Shown here one piece after another: positions 10,256-62,655 of a stretch of DNA of 64,000 nt. This DNA comes from Thermomicrobiales bacterium. Lineage in GTDB: Bacteria > Chloroflexota > Chloroflexia > Thermomicrobiales > UBA6265. Below the pieces are notes generated by a model. That model worked only from the letters and a program-made list of their open reading frames with translations, was not told where the DNA came from and did no database searches. The stretch spans positions 156,675-220,674 of the forward strand of contig JAXLWU010000005.1 in assembly GCA_046328335.1 (NCBI GenBank). The letters run 5' to 3'. Each line of letters opens with the position of its first letter. Within the stretch, counting starts at the first letter, position 1. The translations under genes and the position numbers were made by a program.

Positions 10256-10329
10256 CGTATCCCTCGGCTTCGCGGTCAGCCCTTCGTCCATCATCCAGCA
10301 AGAGGAGGCATGATGGTCTCGCCGCGCTG

Positions 10330-10559
10330 CCCCTCACCCCACCCCCTCTCCCCGTGCGCGGGGCGAGGGGCTGTGTCGGGTCGTTGCGCGGTGGGCGTCG
10401 AGCGCCCCGCTTTTGGAGGGACAAGCGACGCTTGAGTGCGCCGCGCCGAAGCCGTGTCGTCCTGACGCAGGAGTGACCTCGGCCGTCGCACTGTCGGCAA
10501 CGACGCTCACAGCGGGAGCCCCTCGCCCCGCGCACGGGGAGAGGGGGTGGGGTGAGGGG
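10330..10559. repeat. MITE-like element 1 with about 42-nt terminal inverted repeats (family A)
   Basis: Left end CCCCTCACCCCACCCCCTCTCCCCGTGCGCGGGGCGAGGGGC (10330..10371). Right end is its inverted copy (10518..10559). The interior carries a family-B half unit (10454..10483). It lies between convergent gene ends. Confidence 0.7.
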
Positions 10560-10608
10560 CGTCCGGGGTGGTGGTGCGGTCGCTCGTCGGGGTCCGCCGT
10601 CTCGAGTC

Positions 10609-15372: not shown

Positions 15373-15564
15373 CCCTCACCCCGACCCCAGACGCCCCTCA
15401 CCCCAACCCCTCTCCCCGTGCGCGGGGAGAGGGGCTTCTGGTGACGAGGCCCAGTCTTTATCTCTGATCGAGTCTACTGACGAATCAATGCCGGAATCTG
15501 CTTCTCGAGTGCCCAAGAGAGCCCCTCGCCCCGCGCACGGGGAGAGCGGTTGGGGTGAGGGGGG
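15373..15564. repeat. MITE-like element 2 (family A inverted ends) filling the SBP-ATPase spacer
   Basis: 15394..15435 is CCCCTCACCCCAACCCCTCTCCCCGTGCGCGGGGAGAGGGGC. Its inverted copy is 15521..15563. The element abuts the SBP stop codon (15565). Confidence 0.7.
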
Positions 15565-28974: not shown

Positions 28975-31563
28975 ATGGCACACCCTGGTCCATCTGACTC
29001 CAGACCGCCACATGAGGCCGCGGCCGGCGCTGGCCCGGTGGTATGGCTCACCGCTGGAGAGGCAGCGGTGGTTGCCAAGGTGCATGAGCGCACCATCCGC
29101 CGTGCGATCGCCCGTGGCGACCTGAAGGCGACGCGGGTGCGCGGCCGATTGCGCATTACTCGAGACAACTTGCATGACTACCAGCAGCGCCAACGCCAGG
29201 GCAGCACGGCTCCGCGGCGTCCAGCGCGTGCCCGCCGTCTGGCGACGCTTTCCTCCTTGCCAGTGCCACCCACGGCCATCATTGGCCGGGAGCGAGACGT
29301 TCGTTTGGCTACGGCGTTGCTCACCGGCCCGGATGGCCGCTTGCTGACTCTCACGGGCCCGGGCGGGGTGGGCAAGACCCGGTTGGCGCTGGCCGTGGCG
29401 GCGAATCTGGCATCATCATCTGGCGATGGCGTCGTCTTTGTGCCGCTCGAAGCGGTCCGTGATCCGGCGCAAGTCGCCGCTGCCATCGCGCAAACGCTGG
29501 GTATTGCGCCAGGCATTGGCATGGATCACCGGGCAACGCTGATCGAGGCCGTGCGGCATTACGAGCAACTCATCATTCTGGACAACTTCGAGCAGGTCCT
29601 GGGGGCGGCCGCCCTGGTGGCTGAACTCCTTTCGTTCGGGTCTGGGATCCGCATCCTGGTCACCAGCCGGGAGGCGCTGCGCATTCGGGGCGAAACGGAA
29701 ATCGTGGTCAATCCGCTTGCCGTGCCAGACCTCGCCGGACGTCTGACGGCCGAGGCCGTCGCTCGCGCACCGGCGATCGAACTGTTCGTTCGCTGCGCGC
29801 GAGCGGTGCAGCCCGACTTCACGCTCAACGACGACAACGCGGGCCTTCTCGGCGAAATCTGTCACCGTCTCGACGGCCTGCCCCTGGCGATCGAACTGGC
29901 CGCGAGTCAGATCAAGCATGCGTCGTTGCCGGAATTGCGATCACGCCTGACGCGGCGTCTGGATGCGCTCGCAGCTGGCTCCCGTGACCTGCCGGACCGG
30001 CTACGGACGATGCGCGCGGCGATCGGCTGGAGTTACGACCTGCTGGATGCCGACGAACAAGCCGTCTTTCGCCGCCTGTCCGTTTTCGCCGGTGGGTTCA
30101 CGCTGGAGGCGGCAGCGGCCATATGCGATCCGCTCGGTCAATCCGCGCGTTCCATCCAGGCCACCATCGATTCTCTCGTCAATAAGAGTCTTGTGCACAG
30201 AGTGGAAATCGAGAATGCCTCACGCTTTGCGATGCTCGATACGATCCGCGCCTTTGCCGGCGAACAACTTGTGTCCAATGACGAGGATGCCGAGTTCCAC
30301 CATCGGCACGCGGCGTACTTCCTGTCGCTCGCCGAGGCAGCGAGCAATGCGTTTCACGGTCCCGACGAGATTGCCACGCTTGCGCGCCTCGAGCGAGAGT
30401 TTGGCAACGTGCGTGCGGCGCTGGCGTGGAGTGCGAGCGCAGCGCAATCCCTTGGGATTGCGCTCCGGCTGGCTAACGCCATGGCCTGGCCCTGGTATGT
30501 GCGAGGGCACCAGCAGGAGGGATGGCGCTGGTTTGCCTTGCTCCTGGACCGCGCCGACGAGGAATTCGCGCCGCACGATCATGCCAGGGCCTTGATCTTC
30601 GCCAGTTGGCTCGCCGTGCGACTTGGTATGCCCGAGCGCGCGGAACAGCTTTGCGCCGACGCCCTGATGCAGACGGAGCACCTCGCCTTACGTCCGGAAA
30701 ATGCCTTCGCGGAGAGCACCGCGGGCTTTGTCCGGCTGTATGGATTCGGTGATCCGGCGACGGCGAAGCCGCATTTTCAGGCCGCGTTGCTGAAGGCAAG
30801 GTCCACTGGCGACGGTTGGGTCGAGGCCATGAGCGAGTACGGACTGAGCATCGTTGCCCTGGCGGACGGAGACCTGGCGCAGGCAACGGCGTTCGCGGAA
30901 CGCGGTCTCGCGCGATCGCGAGCGATGGGTGATGTGCAGGGCGCCGCGACGAATCTGGCCCAACTTGGCCGTCTCGCCCGGATTCGCGGCGATCTCCCCT
31001 CGGCGCTCCGTATCACCGCTGACGCTCTGGATCAGTACCTGTTCCTCGACGACCGCGGGAATGTCTGCTCCTGCATCGAATCGCTCGCCGGTCTGCTCGT
31101 TGCCATTGGCCGGTTGGAGCAGGGTACGATGCTGTTTGGCACGGCATCCGCGTTCCGGCAGCGCATTGGCACCCCGGTACCGGGTCACGAACAGACCCGA
31201 TATGAGGCAGATGTTGCCGTGGCCACCCAAGGGCTTGTCCAGGCGAGATTCCAGGACGCTTGGCTGCGGGGCGAAGCGATGGCGCTCCAGGAGACCCTTT
31301 CCGGGATTCCCTGGCGCACAATGTCCCCTTACTCGCGATGTGATGCGCCCCGGCCCGCGGGCGCGTCGTTGCTCCGCACCCTGACGCGACGCGAGCGCCA
31401 GATTCTGGAACTCATCGGCGCGGGACACACCGATCGGCAGATCGGGGATCTGCTCGCCATCAGCCCCGCCACCGTGACTAAACACGTCGGCAACGCGCTT
31501 GCCAAACTTGGCGCGCCCTCCCGTACCGCTGCGGCCGTGCTGCTGCTGACGACCACCATCTGA
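28975..31563 (+). CDS. STAND-type ATPase regulator: N-terminal excisionase/MerR-like HTH, NB-ARC P-loop, TPR-like region, C-terminal LuxR HTH
   Basis: WLTAGEAAVVAKVHERTIRRAIARGDLKATRV (HTH); LTLTGPGGVGKTRLALAVA (Walker A); LIILDNFEQV (Walker B); C-terminus LTRRERQILELIGAGHTDRQIGDLLAISPATVTKHVGNALAKLG (LuxR). Confidence 0.85.
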   Translation: MAHPGPSDSRPPHEAAAGAGPVVWLTAGEAAVVAKVHERTIRRAIARGDLKATRVRGRLRITRDNLHDYQQRQRQGSTAPRRPARARRLATLSSLPVPPTAIIGRERDVRLATALLTGPDGRLLTLTGPGGVGKTRLALAVAANLASSSGDGVVFVPLEAVRDPAQVAAAIAQTLGIAPGIGMDHRATLIEAVRHYEQLIILDNFEQVLGAAALVAELLSFGSGIRILVTSREALRIRGETEIVVNPLAVPDLAGRLTAEAVARAPAIELFVRCARAVQPDFTLNDDNAGLLGEICHRLDGLPLAIELAASQIKHASLPELRSRLTRRLDALAAGSRDLPDRLRTMRAAIGWSYDLLDADEQAVFRRLSVFAGGFTLEAAAAICDPLGQSARSIQATIDSLVNKSLVHRVEIENASRFAMLDTIRAFAGEQLVSNDEDAEFHHRHAAYFLSLAEAASNAFHGPDEIATLARLEREFGNVRAALAWSASAAQSLGIALRLANAMAWPWYVRGHQQEGWRWFALLLDRADEEFAPHDHARALIFASWLAVRLGMPERAEQLCADALMQTEHLALRPENAFAESTAGFVRLYGFGDPATAKPHFQAALLKARSTGDGWVEAMSEYGLSIVALADGDLAQATAFAERGLARSRAMGDVQGAATNLAQLGRLARIRGDLPSALRITADALDQYLFLDDRGNVCSCIESLAGLLVAIGRLEQGTMLFGTASAFRQRIGTPVPGHEQTRYEADVAVATQGLVQARFQDAWLRGEAMALQETLSGIPWRTMSPYSRCDAPRPAGASLLRTLTRRERQILELIGAGHTDRQIGDLLAISPATVTKHVGNALAKLGAPSRTAAAVLLLTTTI

Positions 31564-32067: not shown

Positions 32068-32604
32068 ATGACCCTCGCCGGGCACCTGCGTCGCTGGTCT
32101 GACGCCGCGCTGCGTCACATTCCGGCGGGATCCCCCTTTGATGTTCTCGACTTCCGCTTTGCCGGACTCTCGGCCGACAACCGTTGGCATGAACCCGGCG
32201 TTCCCACCCTCTATCTCGCGGGTGACGAAGGCGTCCTGATCGCCGAATGGGGCCGTCACTTTGCTACGAACCGCGCCGCGCACTTGCAGGCATTGACGGT
32301 CGAACGCAATATCTTCCGGTTGGCGTTGACGATCGACGCCGTGCTCGACCTGCGGCGGGAAGAGGTCTGCACCGCGATTGCTATCGAGAATGCTCCCTTC
32401 TGCTTTGCCGATATCGCCTTCGCCCGCGCCACCGCGCGGTTCATCCGCAGCACGACGCAAGATCAGCGGTTGCTCGTGCTATCGCTGGGGTTTATCGACG
32501 ATTTCGAACGGTGGGGCCTGGTCCTGTTCCTCGAAAAGCTCCCGCCCAATCCTGACGGGTTCATTTCCGCGGTGACGCCGTGTGGGCCGCTTCGCTGGGG
32601 CTGA
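32068..32604 (+). CDS. RES-domain toxin (MbcT/ParT-like)
   Basis: ATG directly follows the antitoxin TAG. Translation has ...FAGLSADNRWHEPGVPTLYLAGDEGVLIAEWGRH..., the RES-domain pattern with intact Arg, Glu and Ser positions as far as can be judged by eye. Confidence 0.8.
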   Translation: MTLAGHLRRWSDAALRHIPAGSPFDVLDFRFAGLSADNRWHEPGVPTLYLAGDEGVLIAEWGRHFATNRAAHLQALTVERNIFRLALTIDAVLDLRREEVCTAIAIENAPFCFADIAFARATARFIRSTTQDQRLLVLSLGFIDDFERWGLVLFLEKLPPNPDGFISAVTPCGPLRWG

Positions 32605-33484: not shown

Positions 33485-34153
33485 TCAGGAATCAGGAGGA
33501 GGAATTGCAGTCCAGGCTAACGGACGTCGCACGGTGTATCCATCTCCACCTACTATCTCATCAGGCAGTTGGCACGACGCAATAAGACGCTGATCTAGCG
33601 GGCGGGCATGCGAGGCAACGCGCGCAAGTTTTCTCGCAACGACGGTATCAGGGCTAATGACAACCACACGGCGTCCGAATCGCTCCGTTACGATTCTGAT
33701 TGGCTCGACGAAGTCGGAATCATTCGTCATGATGAGTGCCACATCGAATCGACCATCGAAGGTGTCCATGAGCAAGTGCGTCACCAGCGACGCATCAGAC
33801 CCCTTTTCCTGCATAATCCACACCGTTTGTTGCGGATCTATACCATCCGGACATCTGGCAAGTTGGGCTTCCCGCTTGTTTCGATGGAAAATTCCTTCGT
33901 GAATCTCGATTCCTGACAACCCCCTGAGTGCTCGAAGATAGACATCCTGACGTGAAGCACGCTGGGGATCCATTGGCAGATCACGCACGCGAGCTGTGTA
34001 GTACCGCACCAGCGCGAAATCTTCATCAGGGAGAATTGCTTCTGCGAGCGCCTTCAGATTGAGCCATTTCAGTGCAGCATTTCCCAGGTTTCGCTCTCCC
34101 TTGAAGCAGCCGAAATACAGGGCGAATCCGTCAATGTACGCGATTGCGGTCAT
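33485..34153 (-). CDS. NYN-domain (PIN-like ribonuclease fold) protein, copy 1
   Basis: MTAIAYIDGFALYFGCFKG...KWLNLKALAE...QEKGSDASLVTHLLMDTFDGRFDVALIMTNDSDFVEPIRIV. GC is lower than the surroundings. ATG follows GGGAG. Confidence 0.85.
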   Translation of the reverse strand: MTAIAYIDGFALYFGCFKGERNLGNAALKWLNLKALAEAILPDEDFALVRYYTARVRDLPMDPQRASRQDVYLRALRGLSGIEIHEGIFHRNKREAQLARCPDGIDPQQTVWIMQEKGSDASLVTHLLMDTFDGRFDVALIMTNDSDFVEPIRIVTERFGRRVVVISPDTVVARKLARVASHARPLDQRLIASCQLPDEIVGGDGYTVRRPLAWTAIPPPDS

Positions 34154-34264
34154 TGCGCTCCCAACAAGAAGAGGGGCCCACCTGATGGGTGGGCCCCTCG
34201 GCCTACCACCGAAGCGGTAGGGGACTTCCCTATCATTATATGAATTCACAGTCACCGTCGTCAA
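34154..34264 (-). promoter_or_regulatory. Leader L1: TTGACG-18 nt-TATAAT promoter, hairpin 1, terminator-like hairpin 2, U-rich tract, then the NYN RBS
   Basis: On the minus strand: -35 at 34264..34259 and -10 at 34240..34235. Hairpin 1 is CCTACCGC-TTCG-GTGGTAGG (34221..34202). Hairpin 2 is GAGGGGCCCACC-CATCA-GGTGGGCCCCTC (34199..34171), followed by TTCTTGTT and ATG at 34153. Confidence 0.5.
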
Positions 34265-38063: not shown

Positions 38064-38387
38064 CCCCTCACCCTCACCCCTTGAGTGCCCCTCACCCCAA
38101 CCCCTCTCCCCGTGCGCGGGGCGAGGGACTGTTTCAGGTCGTCGAGCTGCCGGAGTGGAGCGTTATGCGCTCGAAAGACACGTCGCTTCCGAGTGCGCCA
38201 CGCAGCAGCGGTGTCGTCCCGACGCAGGAGGGACCTCGGCGGTCACGTTGACCACCACCACCGAGATTCTTCGCATCCGCGTGCCACGAACCCAGTGCTG
38301 CCTCGCACCCGCGGCAGCGTTGCTCCCTGCCGGAGCCCCTCTCCCCGCGCACGGGGAGAGGGGTTGGGGTGAGGGGCGCGTCGCGAG
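38064..38387. repeat. MITE-like element 3 (family A inverted ends)
   Basis: 38088..38127 is CCCCTCACCCCAACCCCTCTCCCCGTGCGCGGGGCGAGGG, and 38346..38387 is its inverted copy. The interior shares GTGTCGTCCCGACGCAGGAGGGACCTCGGC (38211..38240) with element 1. Confidence 0.7.
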
Positions 38388-57701: not shown

Positions 57702-57797
57702 TTGACGAATTGAGCGAATCTGAGTACCATAAATGCAACTCCCCCTGCGGCTTTCCCCGCAGGGCCACGAGCCGCCCCATAAGGGCGGCTCTTTTTC
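57702..57797 (+). promoter_or_regulatory. Leader L2: TTGACG-17 nt-TACCAT promoter, hairpin 1, terminator hairpin 2 with T5, directly upstream of NYN copy 2
   Basis: -35 at 57702..57707 and -10 at 57725..57730. Hairpin 1 is CCCTGCGG-CTTTC-CCGCAGGG (57743..57764). Hairpin 2 is GAGCCGCCC-CATAA-GGGCGGCTC (57769..57791), followed by TTTTT. Confidence 0.5.
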
Positions 57798-57809
57798 GTG
57801 TCGGACGAG

Positions 57810-58481
57810 GTGAGAGCGGGCACCTATACGTACTATGACGGGTTCAATTTCTACTATCGACTGTTCAAGAATCGTCGGCGAACTCACAAATTGCCTGCGA
57901 ATCTCAAGTGGTTGGATCTACTGAAGCTGAGTCAATCTCTTGCTCCAGGACAGACGGTTGACTGGGTTGGTTATTTCACCGCATTTGTTCGGCAGAATCC
58001 TCTTGATCCAGATCAACACGTTCGTCAACGGGCTTACATTGAGGCATTGAGGACGATTCCTTGTCTAGAGATCGTTGAAGGGAAGTTCCAGCCGACAACA
58101 AAGCGTGGGATACCGGTTGGCTGTGCAATCTGCGGTGCGAGCGCAGTCTCTCCGATCGAATTCAATACCTTCGAAGAGAAGGGATCGGATGTGAACCTGG
58201 CTGCAAGGTTGGTTCGCGACGCAGCGCTAGGCAAGTTCTCCGCAGCATTGGTGATCTCAAATGACAGTGATCTTGCGGAGGCAATTCGAATTGCCACCGA
58301 CGATTTTGGTCGAGTTGTCCACGTCCTTAGCCCAGATATCAACGTGAACAATTCCTTGACGAAGGTCGCATCAAGCGCCAAACCACTTGACGTGAAGTTG
58401 CTGAAGCGATGCCAGTTCCCGCCGACACTGCGGAACGCGGCGGGCATTGTCATCAGCAGGCCTGTTGCCTGGTCGCGTTAG
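57810..58481 (+). CDS. NYN-domain (PIN-like ribonuclease fold) protein, copy 2
   Basis: (V)RAGTYTYYDGFNFYYRLFKN...LKWLDLLKLSQ...EEKGSDVNLAARLVRDAALGKFSAALVISNDSDLAEAIRIA. Visibly lower GC. The start could be GTG 57798 or 57810; 57810 matches the geometry of copy 1. Confidence 0.85.
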   Translation: MRAGTYTYYDGFNFYYRLFKNRRRTHKLPANLKWLDLLKLSQSLAPGQTVDWVGYFTAFVRQNPLDPDQHVRQRAYIEALRTIPCLEIVEGKFQPTTKRGIPVGCAICGASAVSPIEFNTFEEKGSDVNLAARLVRDAALGKFSAALVISNDSDLAEAIRIATDDFGRVVHVLSPDINVNNSLTKVASSAKPLDVKLLKRCQFPPTLRNAAGIVISRPVAWSR

Positions 58482-62602: not shown

Positions 62603-62620
62603 GGTTGACCCTCACCCCAA

Positions 62621-62655
62621 CCCCTCTCCCGCTTGGCGGGAGAGGGGCTTTTTGT
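62621..62655 (+). terminator. Rho-independent terminator of the pdh operon, built from a family-A-like half element
   Basis: CCCCTCTCCCGC-TTG-GCGGGAGAGGGG followed by CTTTTTGTGTTGT, 19 nt after the pdhC stop. It is preceded by CCCTCACCCCAA as in family A. Confidence 0.7.

Follow-up and report, generated by a model that had tools for sequence, protein, structure and literature searches.

Type III toxin-antitoxin loci are recognized by a common anatomy in which a promoter is followed by tandem repeats, a terminator, and a toxin gene (PMC3401426), and in the ToxIN system the repeats that make up the ToxI RNA number 5.5 and are 36 nt long (PMC3401426, Blower et al. 2012). A related case is AvcI, a small RNA without repeats by which a protein toxin is inhibited (PMC10511110). 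On the protein side, HEC-09 has been proposed as a single-gene candidate defense gene that is embedded in Hma systems, in a paper that makes no mention of a non-coding RNA (Payne et al., bioRxiv 10.1101/2024.01.29.577857). Here we describe a small structured RNA that adjoins NYN-domain genes of the HEC-09 family, two copies of which (copies A and B) lie in a 64,000-nt stretch of DNA from a Thermomicrobiales bacterium (GCA_046328335.1, contig JAXLWU010000005.1, positions 156,675 to 220,674), hereafter called the window. We are highly confident that this is a real and autonomous small RNA linked to NYN genes. We further propose, with a probability of roughly 0.55, that each locus would constitute an RNA-protein toxin-antitoxin-like module in which the RNA serves as the antitoxin for an NYN ribonuclease.

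Compared with type III loci, both window loci have a promoter upstream of the RNA and a terminator-like hairpin with a T tract directly preceding the NYN start codon. Neither has a tandem array, as each carries a single hairpin-1 unit, which agrees with an original prediction made from the letters of the window that there is no repeat at these loci. The same prediction placed the two NYN paralogs behind a shared layout of promoter, hairpin, terminator hairpin, and T tract, and its coordinates were confirmed by reading, by consensus scans for promoters and terminators, which return exactly these elements at both loci, and by folding, in which both segments form two adjacent hairpins (z-scores of -4.2 and -3.3). 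The elements of copy B, followed by those of copy A, are listed below.

57702-57707 and 57725-57730, plus strand: promoter of RNA copy B, TTGACG and TACCAT with a 17-nt spacer, from the consensus promoter scan.
57737..57797, plus strand: small RNA copy B, about 61 nt, with its 5' end inferred from the -10 box.
57743-57764, plus strand: copy B hairpin 1, 8 bp, CCCTGCGG (57743-57750) paired with CCGCAGGG (57757-57764).
57765-57768, plus strand: copy B linker, CCAC.
57769-57791, plus strand: copy B hairpin 2, 9 bp, GC, GAGCCGCCC (57769-57777), loop CATAA, GGGCGGCTC (57783-57791).
57792-57796, plus strand: copy B T tract, TTTTT.
57810..58481, plus strand: NYN gene copy B, 223 aa, with a GTG start 18 nt past the hairpin 2 stem.
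34264-34259 and 34240-34235, minus strand: promoter of RNA copy A, TTGACG and TATAAT with an 18-nt spacer, matching the consensus at 11 of 12 positions.
34163..34228, minus strand: small RNA copy A, about 66 nt, 5' end inferred.
34221-34214 and 34209-34202, minus strand: copy A hairpin 1, 8 bp, CCTACCGC paired with GTGGTAGG around a TTCG loop (cUUCGg-type).
Between hairpins 1 and 2, minus strand: copy A linker, CC.
34199-34171, minus strand: copy A hairpin 2, 12 bp, loop CATCA.
34170-34163, minus strand: copy A T-rich tract.
33485..34153, minus strand: NYN gene copy A, 222 aa, with an ATG at 34153, 17 nt past the hairpin 2 stem.

The linker had been described as 3-4 nt long, which holds for copy B (4 nt) but not for copy A (2 nt). 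Both RNAs begin with a short C-rich 5' tail, which in copy B lies ahead of hairpin 1 at 57743. The ATG of NYN copy A is preceded by a GGGAG Shine-Dalgarno sequence 7 nt to its 5' side, and NYN copy B has an in-frame GTG at 57798 that is a possible alternative start. Because neither locus has space for a second promoter ahead of NYN, the NYN genes of the window would be expressed only through read-through of the RNA terminator.

Conservation of this layout was assessed in a set of 80 homologous NYN loci (33-42% identity, one genome per species) that spans Chloroflexota, Acidobacteriota, Actinobacteria, Verrucomicrobia, Planctomycetes, Alphaproteobacteria, and others. The motif is visible by eye in the flanks of most of them. 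The general build is an RNA of about 60-65 nt with a C-rich 5' tail, a 7-9-bp hairpin that is usually UUCG-capped, and an intrinsic terminator hairpin, and the consensus reads AUAUCCCCCCUG-nnn-CUUCGG-nnn-CAGGG-YGCGAGGCCGC-loop-GCGGCCUCUGCUUUUU. A covariance model was built from a 30-instance alignment of homologous loci. In the 64-kb window, this model finds copy A (34165-34230, 51 bits, E = 2e-14) and copy B (57735-57801, 48.1 bits, E = 2e-13), and the next-best match scores 20 bits. Among the 80 loci, it finds 85 matches. In the resulting 85-sequence alignment, whose pair counts lean toward the structure because the sequences were fitted to the model, all 16 pairs change on both sides and 96% of the cells are paired, a level that none of 500 shuffles reaches. 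The fitting makes two other results important: sliding the register lowers the paired cells to 29-53%, and MAFFT, run independently on 30 instances picked by hand, gives a consensus of two hairpins with compensatory changes at 15 of 16 pairs. Thus, the preservation of pairing despite differing stems, originally noticed between the two window copies, extends across the whole alignment. The sequence itself is conserved at the helix bases and at the hairpin junction.

As a separate observation on the structure, hairpin 2 seems to gain two more pairs in the wider alignment (alignment A4, columns 60-61 with 110-112). Many sequences have a conserved bulged U or A in this extension (GC...U-GC) and others are bulge-free (CA...UG, UA...UG); both window copies are without it.

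Viewed from the protein side, the RNA immediately adjoins the NYN gene in 74 of the 80 loci (covariance model, E <= 0.01), and four further loci have weak matches at the expected positions. A comparable RNA is thus present in relatives, where the original prediction had proposed to look for one upstream of NYN homologs, although its position is not solely upstream. The co-directional upstream arrangement of the window is found in 52 of the 80 loci, where 1-36 nt lie between the end of the match and the start codon. The RNA is upstream and divergent in 11 loci, mainly in Acidobacteriota, and it is downstream and convergent in 10-11, mainly in Actinobacteria, where it abuts the stop codon or overlaps it by about 2 nt. 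Altogether, the RNA gene is on the strand opposite NYN in about 27% of loci. Six loci have two or three complete RNA genes in tandem per NYN gene, about 110-155 nt apart. All three orientation classes have a sigma-70-like promoter at a constant distance from the RNA, with 3-8 nt between the end of its -10 box and the model start, and the promoter score is at least 10 of 12 in 47% of 77 instances versus 0.25% of control positions. The T tracts are similar in the three classes; likewise, a comparison of alignment columns for weakening of the terminator that might favor read-through revealed no meaningful difference between them.

The converse scan, from the RNA side, used a pattern consisting of hairpin 1 and the linker only (CCCCTGNNNCTTCGGNNNCAGGGYGCGAG) against metagenome and viral contigs. 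It produced 83 matches, 55 of which directly adjoin an NYN gene (50 co-directional upstream and 5 convergent), while 10 are too near a contig end to judge and 18 have no NYN gene within 400 nt. Among the last group, eight lie within about 540 nt of the contig start, so that a divergent gene is possible beyond it, one has an IS200/IS605-type TnpB inserted between the RNA gene and the NYN gene (L138, 987-3065), and nine are true orphans, each a full RNA gene that includes promoter and terminator. Where a perfect RNA pattern adjoins NYN, about 10 of the 55 NYN genes carry a frameshift or truncation for which contig ends provide no explanation.

The covariation, together with linkage seen from both sides, indicates that the RNA is a real structure under selection and that it is linked specifically to the NYN family, as the original prediction had claimed. 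Given its opposite-strand placements, the promoter in every arrangement, the duplicates, and the orphans, we regard the RNA as an autonomous small-RNA gene; as predicted from these arrangements, it is its own transcription unit of about 60-65 nt and not merely a 5' untranslated region. The earlier description of it as a leader or attenuator was too narrow for the same reasons. Only the co-directional layout, which is that of the window, lets the RNA terminator also gate NYN transcription.

The proteins encoded by copies A and B are 39% identical to one another, and that of copy A is 100% identical to an NCBI protein assigned to a Thermomicrobiales MAG. Both match Pfam NYN, weakly, and both match the PADLOC HEC-09 profile PDLC04163 over its full length (positions 5-203 of 203), with E-values of 5.9e-42 for copy A and 1.2e-40 for copy B. 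The AlphaFold model of copy A (pLDDT of 92.5) resembles the LabA-like NYN structure 2qip and the MARF1 NYN structures 5yaa and 6fdl; it does not match ToxN, and the Kid/MazF-like fold of ToxN/AbiQ is thus not found here. In an alignment of the 80 homologs, D8, E116, D120, D145, and D147 are invariant or nearly so. By these matches, the neighbor of the RNA gene encodes a predicted metal-dependent ribonuclease of the NYN (PIN-like) type, which belongs to the HEC-09 family and has its catalytic site intact. A sequence search of solved structures returned only spurious matches to glucose-6-phosphate isomerase, and an NCBIfam search of the NYN proteins returned nothing useful. A search for contigs encoding the exact NYN protein found only contigs of 1-2 kb, which give no wider context. 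We also observed that many plasmid NYN genes are annotated as 6-hydroxy-3-succinoylpyridine 3-monooxygenase (HspA/nicB), as in NZ_KY362371.1, CP030170.1, and OW969837.1.

NYN homologs are also found in mobile contexts. They are carried by 35 viral contigs that are probably prophage, with the RNA adjoining in 26 of these, and by many plasmids, among them ColE1-like ones of 3.4-4.6 kb from E. coli, Salmonella, and Klebsiella; a plasmid of the spirochaete Leptospira has a canonical single RNA unit. In the E. coli plasmid pRHB40-C03_3 (CP057030.1), a promoter is followed by 3.6 tandem 33-nt hairpin-1 units, a terminator (AAAAAAAACCGCAGAUGCGGUUUUUUUU), and NYN, whose start codon lies 9 nt further on. 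The repeat unit in this plasmid consists of hairpin 1 and the C-rich tail, CCUGUGGCGUGCCGCAGG-CGAAGAAACAACCCC. The related plasmid NZ_OW968114.1 likewise has a promoter, followed by 4.8 units before the terminator and NYN, with units of 29-33 nt across both plasmids. When 207 NYN N-termini were examined for short-period hairpin arrays upstream, such arrays were found only on E. coli-type plasmids. Judged by their predicted elements, these E. coli plasmid loci have the full anatomy of type III loci (PMC3401426). Since the tail and hairpin 1 are the part that is iterated in the arrays, we read them as the functional unit, and the arrays point to hairpin 2 as being mainly a terminator. In NZ_OW968114.1, an annotated coding sequence has been drawn across the entire RNA repeat array (L249, 95-380).

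Orphan RNAs persist in Hma or restriction-modification islands. One Hma-like island (L087, 5311-9358) contains, in this order, an SNF2 helicase, the orphan RNA, an abiF RNA with Abi_2, and a DUF1156 methylase; another (L143, 4255-9820) contains, again in order, GmrSD, the orphan RNA, a DUF3800-IX RNA, and a DUF1156 methylase. The orphan RNA thus adjoins other RNA-protein pairs in both. Other orphans adjoin PglZ, DUF3800, or HsdM. The composition of the L087 and L143 islands suggests that embedded genes have been swapped while the RNA gene was kept.

Set beside ToxIN, CptIN, and TenpIN, the putative NYN module shares the sequence of promoter, structured non-coding RNA, and intrinsic terminator with a ribonuclease gene within a few tens of nucleotides, a predicted excess of RNA over protein, and a distribution among small plasmids, prophages, and defense islands. 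The E. coli plasmid RNA, with its tandem 29-33-nt units of variable copy number, is an array as is ToxI. In contrast, those systems have the ToxN/AbiQ fold and the NYN module has an NYN/PIN-like metallonuclease; most NYN loci have a single unit, or whole RNA genes duplicated each with its own promoter; the NYN RNA is a simple hairpin with a C-rich tail and not a pseudoknot-forming repeat; and its gene can be divergent or convergent. The resemblance to type III loci that had been proposed for the window is thus strengthened by the plasmid arrays, but it extends neither to the toxin fold nor, in the window, to the array.

The overlap with HEC-09 is one of identity on the protein side, comprising the same family (E of about 1e-40 over the full length), an NYN/MARF1-like fold, conserved aspartates, and a link to Hma: HEC-09 was found inside Hma systems, and orphan NYN-type RNAs also occur at Hma-like loci. 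The difference is that HEC-09 was published as a single gene, to which an RNA partner and an array variant are added here. The abiF RNA with Abi_2, the DUF3800 motifs (RF03085, RF02962, and RF02968), and AvcID likewise couple a small structured RNA to a defense effector, and the abiF and DUF3800 RNA motifs are found together with the NYN RNA in shared islands, but their RNA sequences, structures, and proteins all differ from those of the NYN module.

A search of Rfam 15 with gathering and E-value thresholds, covering the window and 40 related loci, placed no family over the NYN RNA. The best sub-threshold match to the RNA was suhB/mmgR, at 20 bits versus a threshold of 41. The Rfam matches otherwise comprised weak suhB/BjrC1505 matches and, elsewhere in the loci, RNAI, tRNA, abiF, DUF3800, and Acido-Lenti-1; ARAGORN gave no tRNA or transfer-messenger RNA. 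No paper linking NYN or HEC-09 to an RNA partner was found in full-text searches of the literature available without subscription. The original statement that no described leader is known for this NYN family therefore holds for Rfam 15 and the searched literature, and we rate the module as a putative type III-like RNA-protein pair with an unrelated nuclease and an RNA that is absent from both.

In the antitoxin reading, a strong, constitutive predicted promoter would drive a ~60-nt RNA beside an NYN ribonuclease gene. The RNA would act in trans on the NYN protein and would most likely inhibit the nuclease by binding or occupying it, in the manner of type III and abortive-infection systems, with the tail and hairpin 1 as its functional unit. 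In the co-directional layout, the terminator would keep the RNA in large excess over read-through NYN mRNA, the role played by the terminator between toxI and toxN. Loss of the RNA supply, or interference by an invader, would then free the RNase. Counted in favor of this reading are the linkage of RNA and NYN gene from both sides, the covarying RNA structure, the autonomy of the RNA gene, signs expected of a toxin (invariant catalytic residues, NYN pseudogenes beside RNAs, and persisting orphan RNAs), signs of dosage (tandem RNA genes in six loci and the plasmid hairpin-1 arrays), and context (small plasmids, prophage contigs, defense islands, and identity with HEC-09). We give even odds to the broader proposal that these loci form a new, phylum-spanning RNA-protein toxin-antitoxin or defense family, in which an NYN metallonuclease would be held in check by a minimal RNA of C-rich tail plus hairpin, encoded as a stand-alone gene in most bacteria and as a ToxI-like array on enterobacterial plasmids.

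Several observations weigh against the antitoxin reading. Most loci, including both in the window, have a single unit with no repeat array, and the NYN fold is unrelated to ToxN, CptN, or TenpN. If hairpin 2 were a terminator only, the strong conservation of its base (GCGAGGCC...GGCCUCUGC) would have no explanation. The predicted RNA is very stable, with UUCG and GNRA loops and long GC stems, and is thus a poor fit to a labile antitoxin. Both window copies lie among housekeeping genes with no obvious defense island. Lastly, HEC-09 gave no defense in E. coli against the phages tested (bioRxiv 10.1101/2024.01.29.577857).

In other explanations, the RNA serves the NYN gene differently. The hairpins and terminator might work only within the NYN mRNA, as an attenuator or as an autoregulatory site of cleavage or binding. 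Other NYN and PIN-like RNases, such as Regnase-1, recognize stem-loops, and in 52 of 80 loci, as in both window copies, 1-36 nt separate the RNA from the NYN start codon; because co-directional loci have no room for another promoter, every NYN transcript from them must carry the RNA. However, the RNA of the opposite-strand loci lies outside the 5' end of the NYN mRNA, it has its own promoter in every orientation class, and it occurs in complete tandem copies and as orphans. Moreover, the alignment contains no conserved alternative anti-terminator pairing, and both loops are usually stable tetraloops with no obvious ligand pocket. We therefore consider a purely cis-acting role unlikely. The RNA could instead be a positive partner of the nuclease, serving as cofactor, scaffold, guide, or sensor in an active ribonucleoprotein. 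The tight two-way genomic linkage and the conserved helix bases and junction are what would be seen in a dedicated RNA-protein complex, and the stable structure that troubles the antitoxin reading suits a long-lived ribonucleoprotein. On the other hand, the variable parts are covarying stems and no variable, spacer-like guide segment is present; in the divergent and convergent classes, the RNA is no more complementary to its cognate NYN translation start than to non-cognate starts; and the features that favor RNA excess (promoter, terminator, tandem copies, and arrays), the orphans, and the NYN pseudogenes beside intact RNAs fit an antidote better. A positive partnership is accordingly also doubtful, and we place it just behind the cis-acting role.

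Two other explanations are much less probable. Base pairing of the RNA with the NYN mRNA, which would block translation or trigger decay as in type I systems, draws support from the 10-11 convergent loci, in which read-through NYN transcripts would be fully complementary to the RNA. In the co-directional majority, however, the mRNA carries the same sense sequence and not its complement, and in the divergent class there is no extra complementarity at the translation initiation region (-29.1 kcal/mol for cognate versus -31.6 kcal/mol for non-cognate pairs), so that an antisense mechanism could operate in the convergent class only, and we consider it highly improbable. An antisense signal seen in the co-directional class was rejected as an artifact, since the tested window overlaps hairpin 2. 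Least probable of all is that the element is an ordinary repeat, or a promoter-terminator insulator that rides with a mobile NYN cassette without any function at the RNA level. The genome does hold a hairpin family resembling repetitive extragenic palindromes (REPs) or miniature inverted-repeat transposable elements (MITEs), and membership of the NYN hairpins in such a family had been named at the outset as a way for the prediction to fail. That family is distinct, scoring 16-20 bits versus 48-51 bits for the NYN RNA. Although termination does not require hairpin 1, this hairpin is conserved and shows covariation across phyla, and both the covariation and the linkage from the protein and RNA sides contradict this explanation. 

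The REP/MITE-like family itself occupies 10329-10560, 15394-15562, 38087-38377, and 62610-62650 of the window and has 43-66-nt inverted arms (CCCCTCACCCCAACCCCTCTCCCCGTGCGCGGGGAGAGGGGCT) around cores of 83-159 nt, each arm being itself a hairpin. Its pattern has 7 matches versus 0.23 expected, and a solo arm after the E2 acyltransferase gene resembles a terminator.

As to the surroundings of the two window copies, one has a release factor and a glyoxalase as neighbors and the other has glycosyltransferases and an E1 dehydrogenase. Neither copy is embedded in an Hma, BREX, or restriction-modification system as is HEC-09; Hma-like islands do house related loci as well as orphan RNAs. Just downstream of NYN copy A are a STAND-type NTPase with HTH, AAA/NB-ARC, TPR, and LuxR domains (28975-31563, plus strand) and an open reading frame with a RES domain, which is a toxin family (32068-32604, plus strand). 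Given these two genes, the copy A side of the locus may be said to have some conflict-system flavor.

More distant NYN subfamilies are present on other plasmids: L244 and L245 on 5.1-5.4-kb plasmids of E. coli and Klebsiella, L246 in Xanthomonas, L247 in Pseudomonas, and L248 on Klebsiella IncF/R plasmids. Upstream of these NYN genes is a repeated GCGATTAAGTT(A/C) in L244, L245, and L248 and CAACAACTAACCC in L246 and L247, and the differing upstream sequences of L244, L245, L247, and L248 also end in a strong terminator just before the NYN gene. These upstream sequences may be further RNA partners. Two loci have tRNA genes downstream of the NYN module at a distance of no more than about 250 nt (L050, 2199-2279; L051, 2356-2426), which could be signs of integration hot spots. 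In an Acidobacteriaceae locus, the module is flanked by two Acido-Lenti-1 RNAs (L015, 2294-2339 and 2443-2489).

If the antitoxin reading is correct, HEC-09 would be a two-component system whose RNA half was overlooked, which would provide a concrete reason for its appearing inert as a single gene. To our knowledge, very few toxin folds have been described in RNA-antitoxin (type III) systems. The type III class would become considerably wider if it took in an NYN-based family that spans at least 10 phyla and also occurs in prophages and on clinical plasmids of E. coli, Klebsiella, and Salmonella. Such a family would also account for a widespread "NYN domain-containing protein" to which the name of the HspA/nicB monooxygenase is often wrongly given. 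The pair is compact, with an RNA of about 30-60 nt and a protein of about 210 aa, and would lend itself to structural and mechanistic study of RNA recognition by NYN proteins, and the RNA is a new structured family with strong covariation that is ready for curation.

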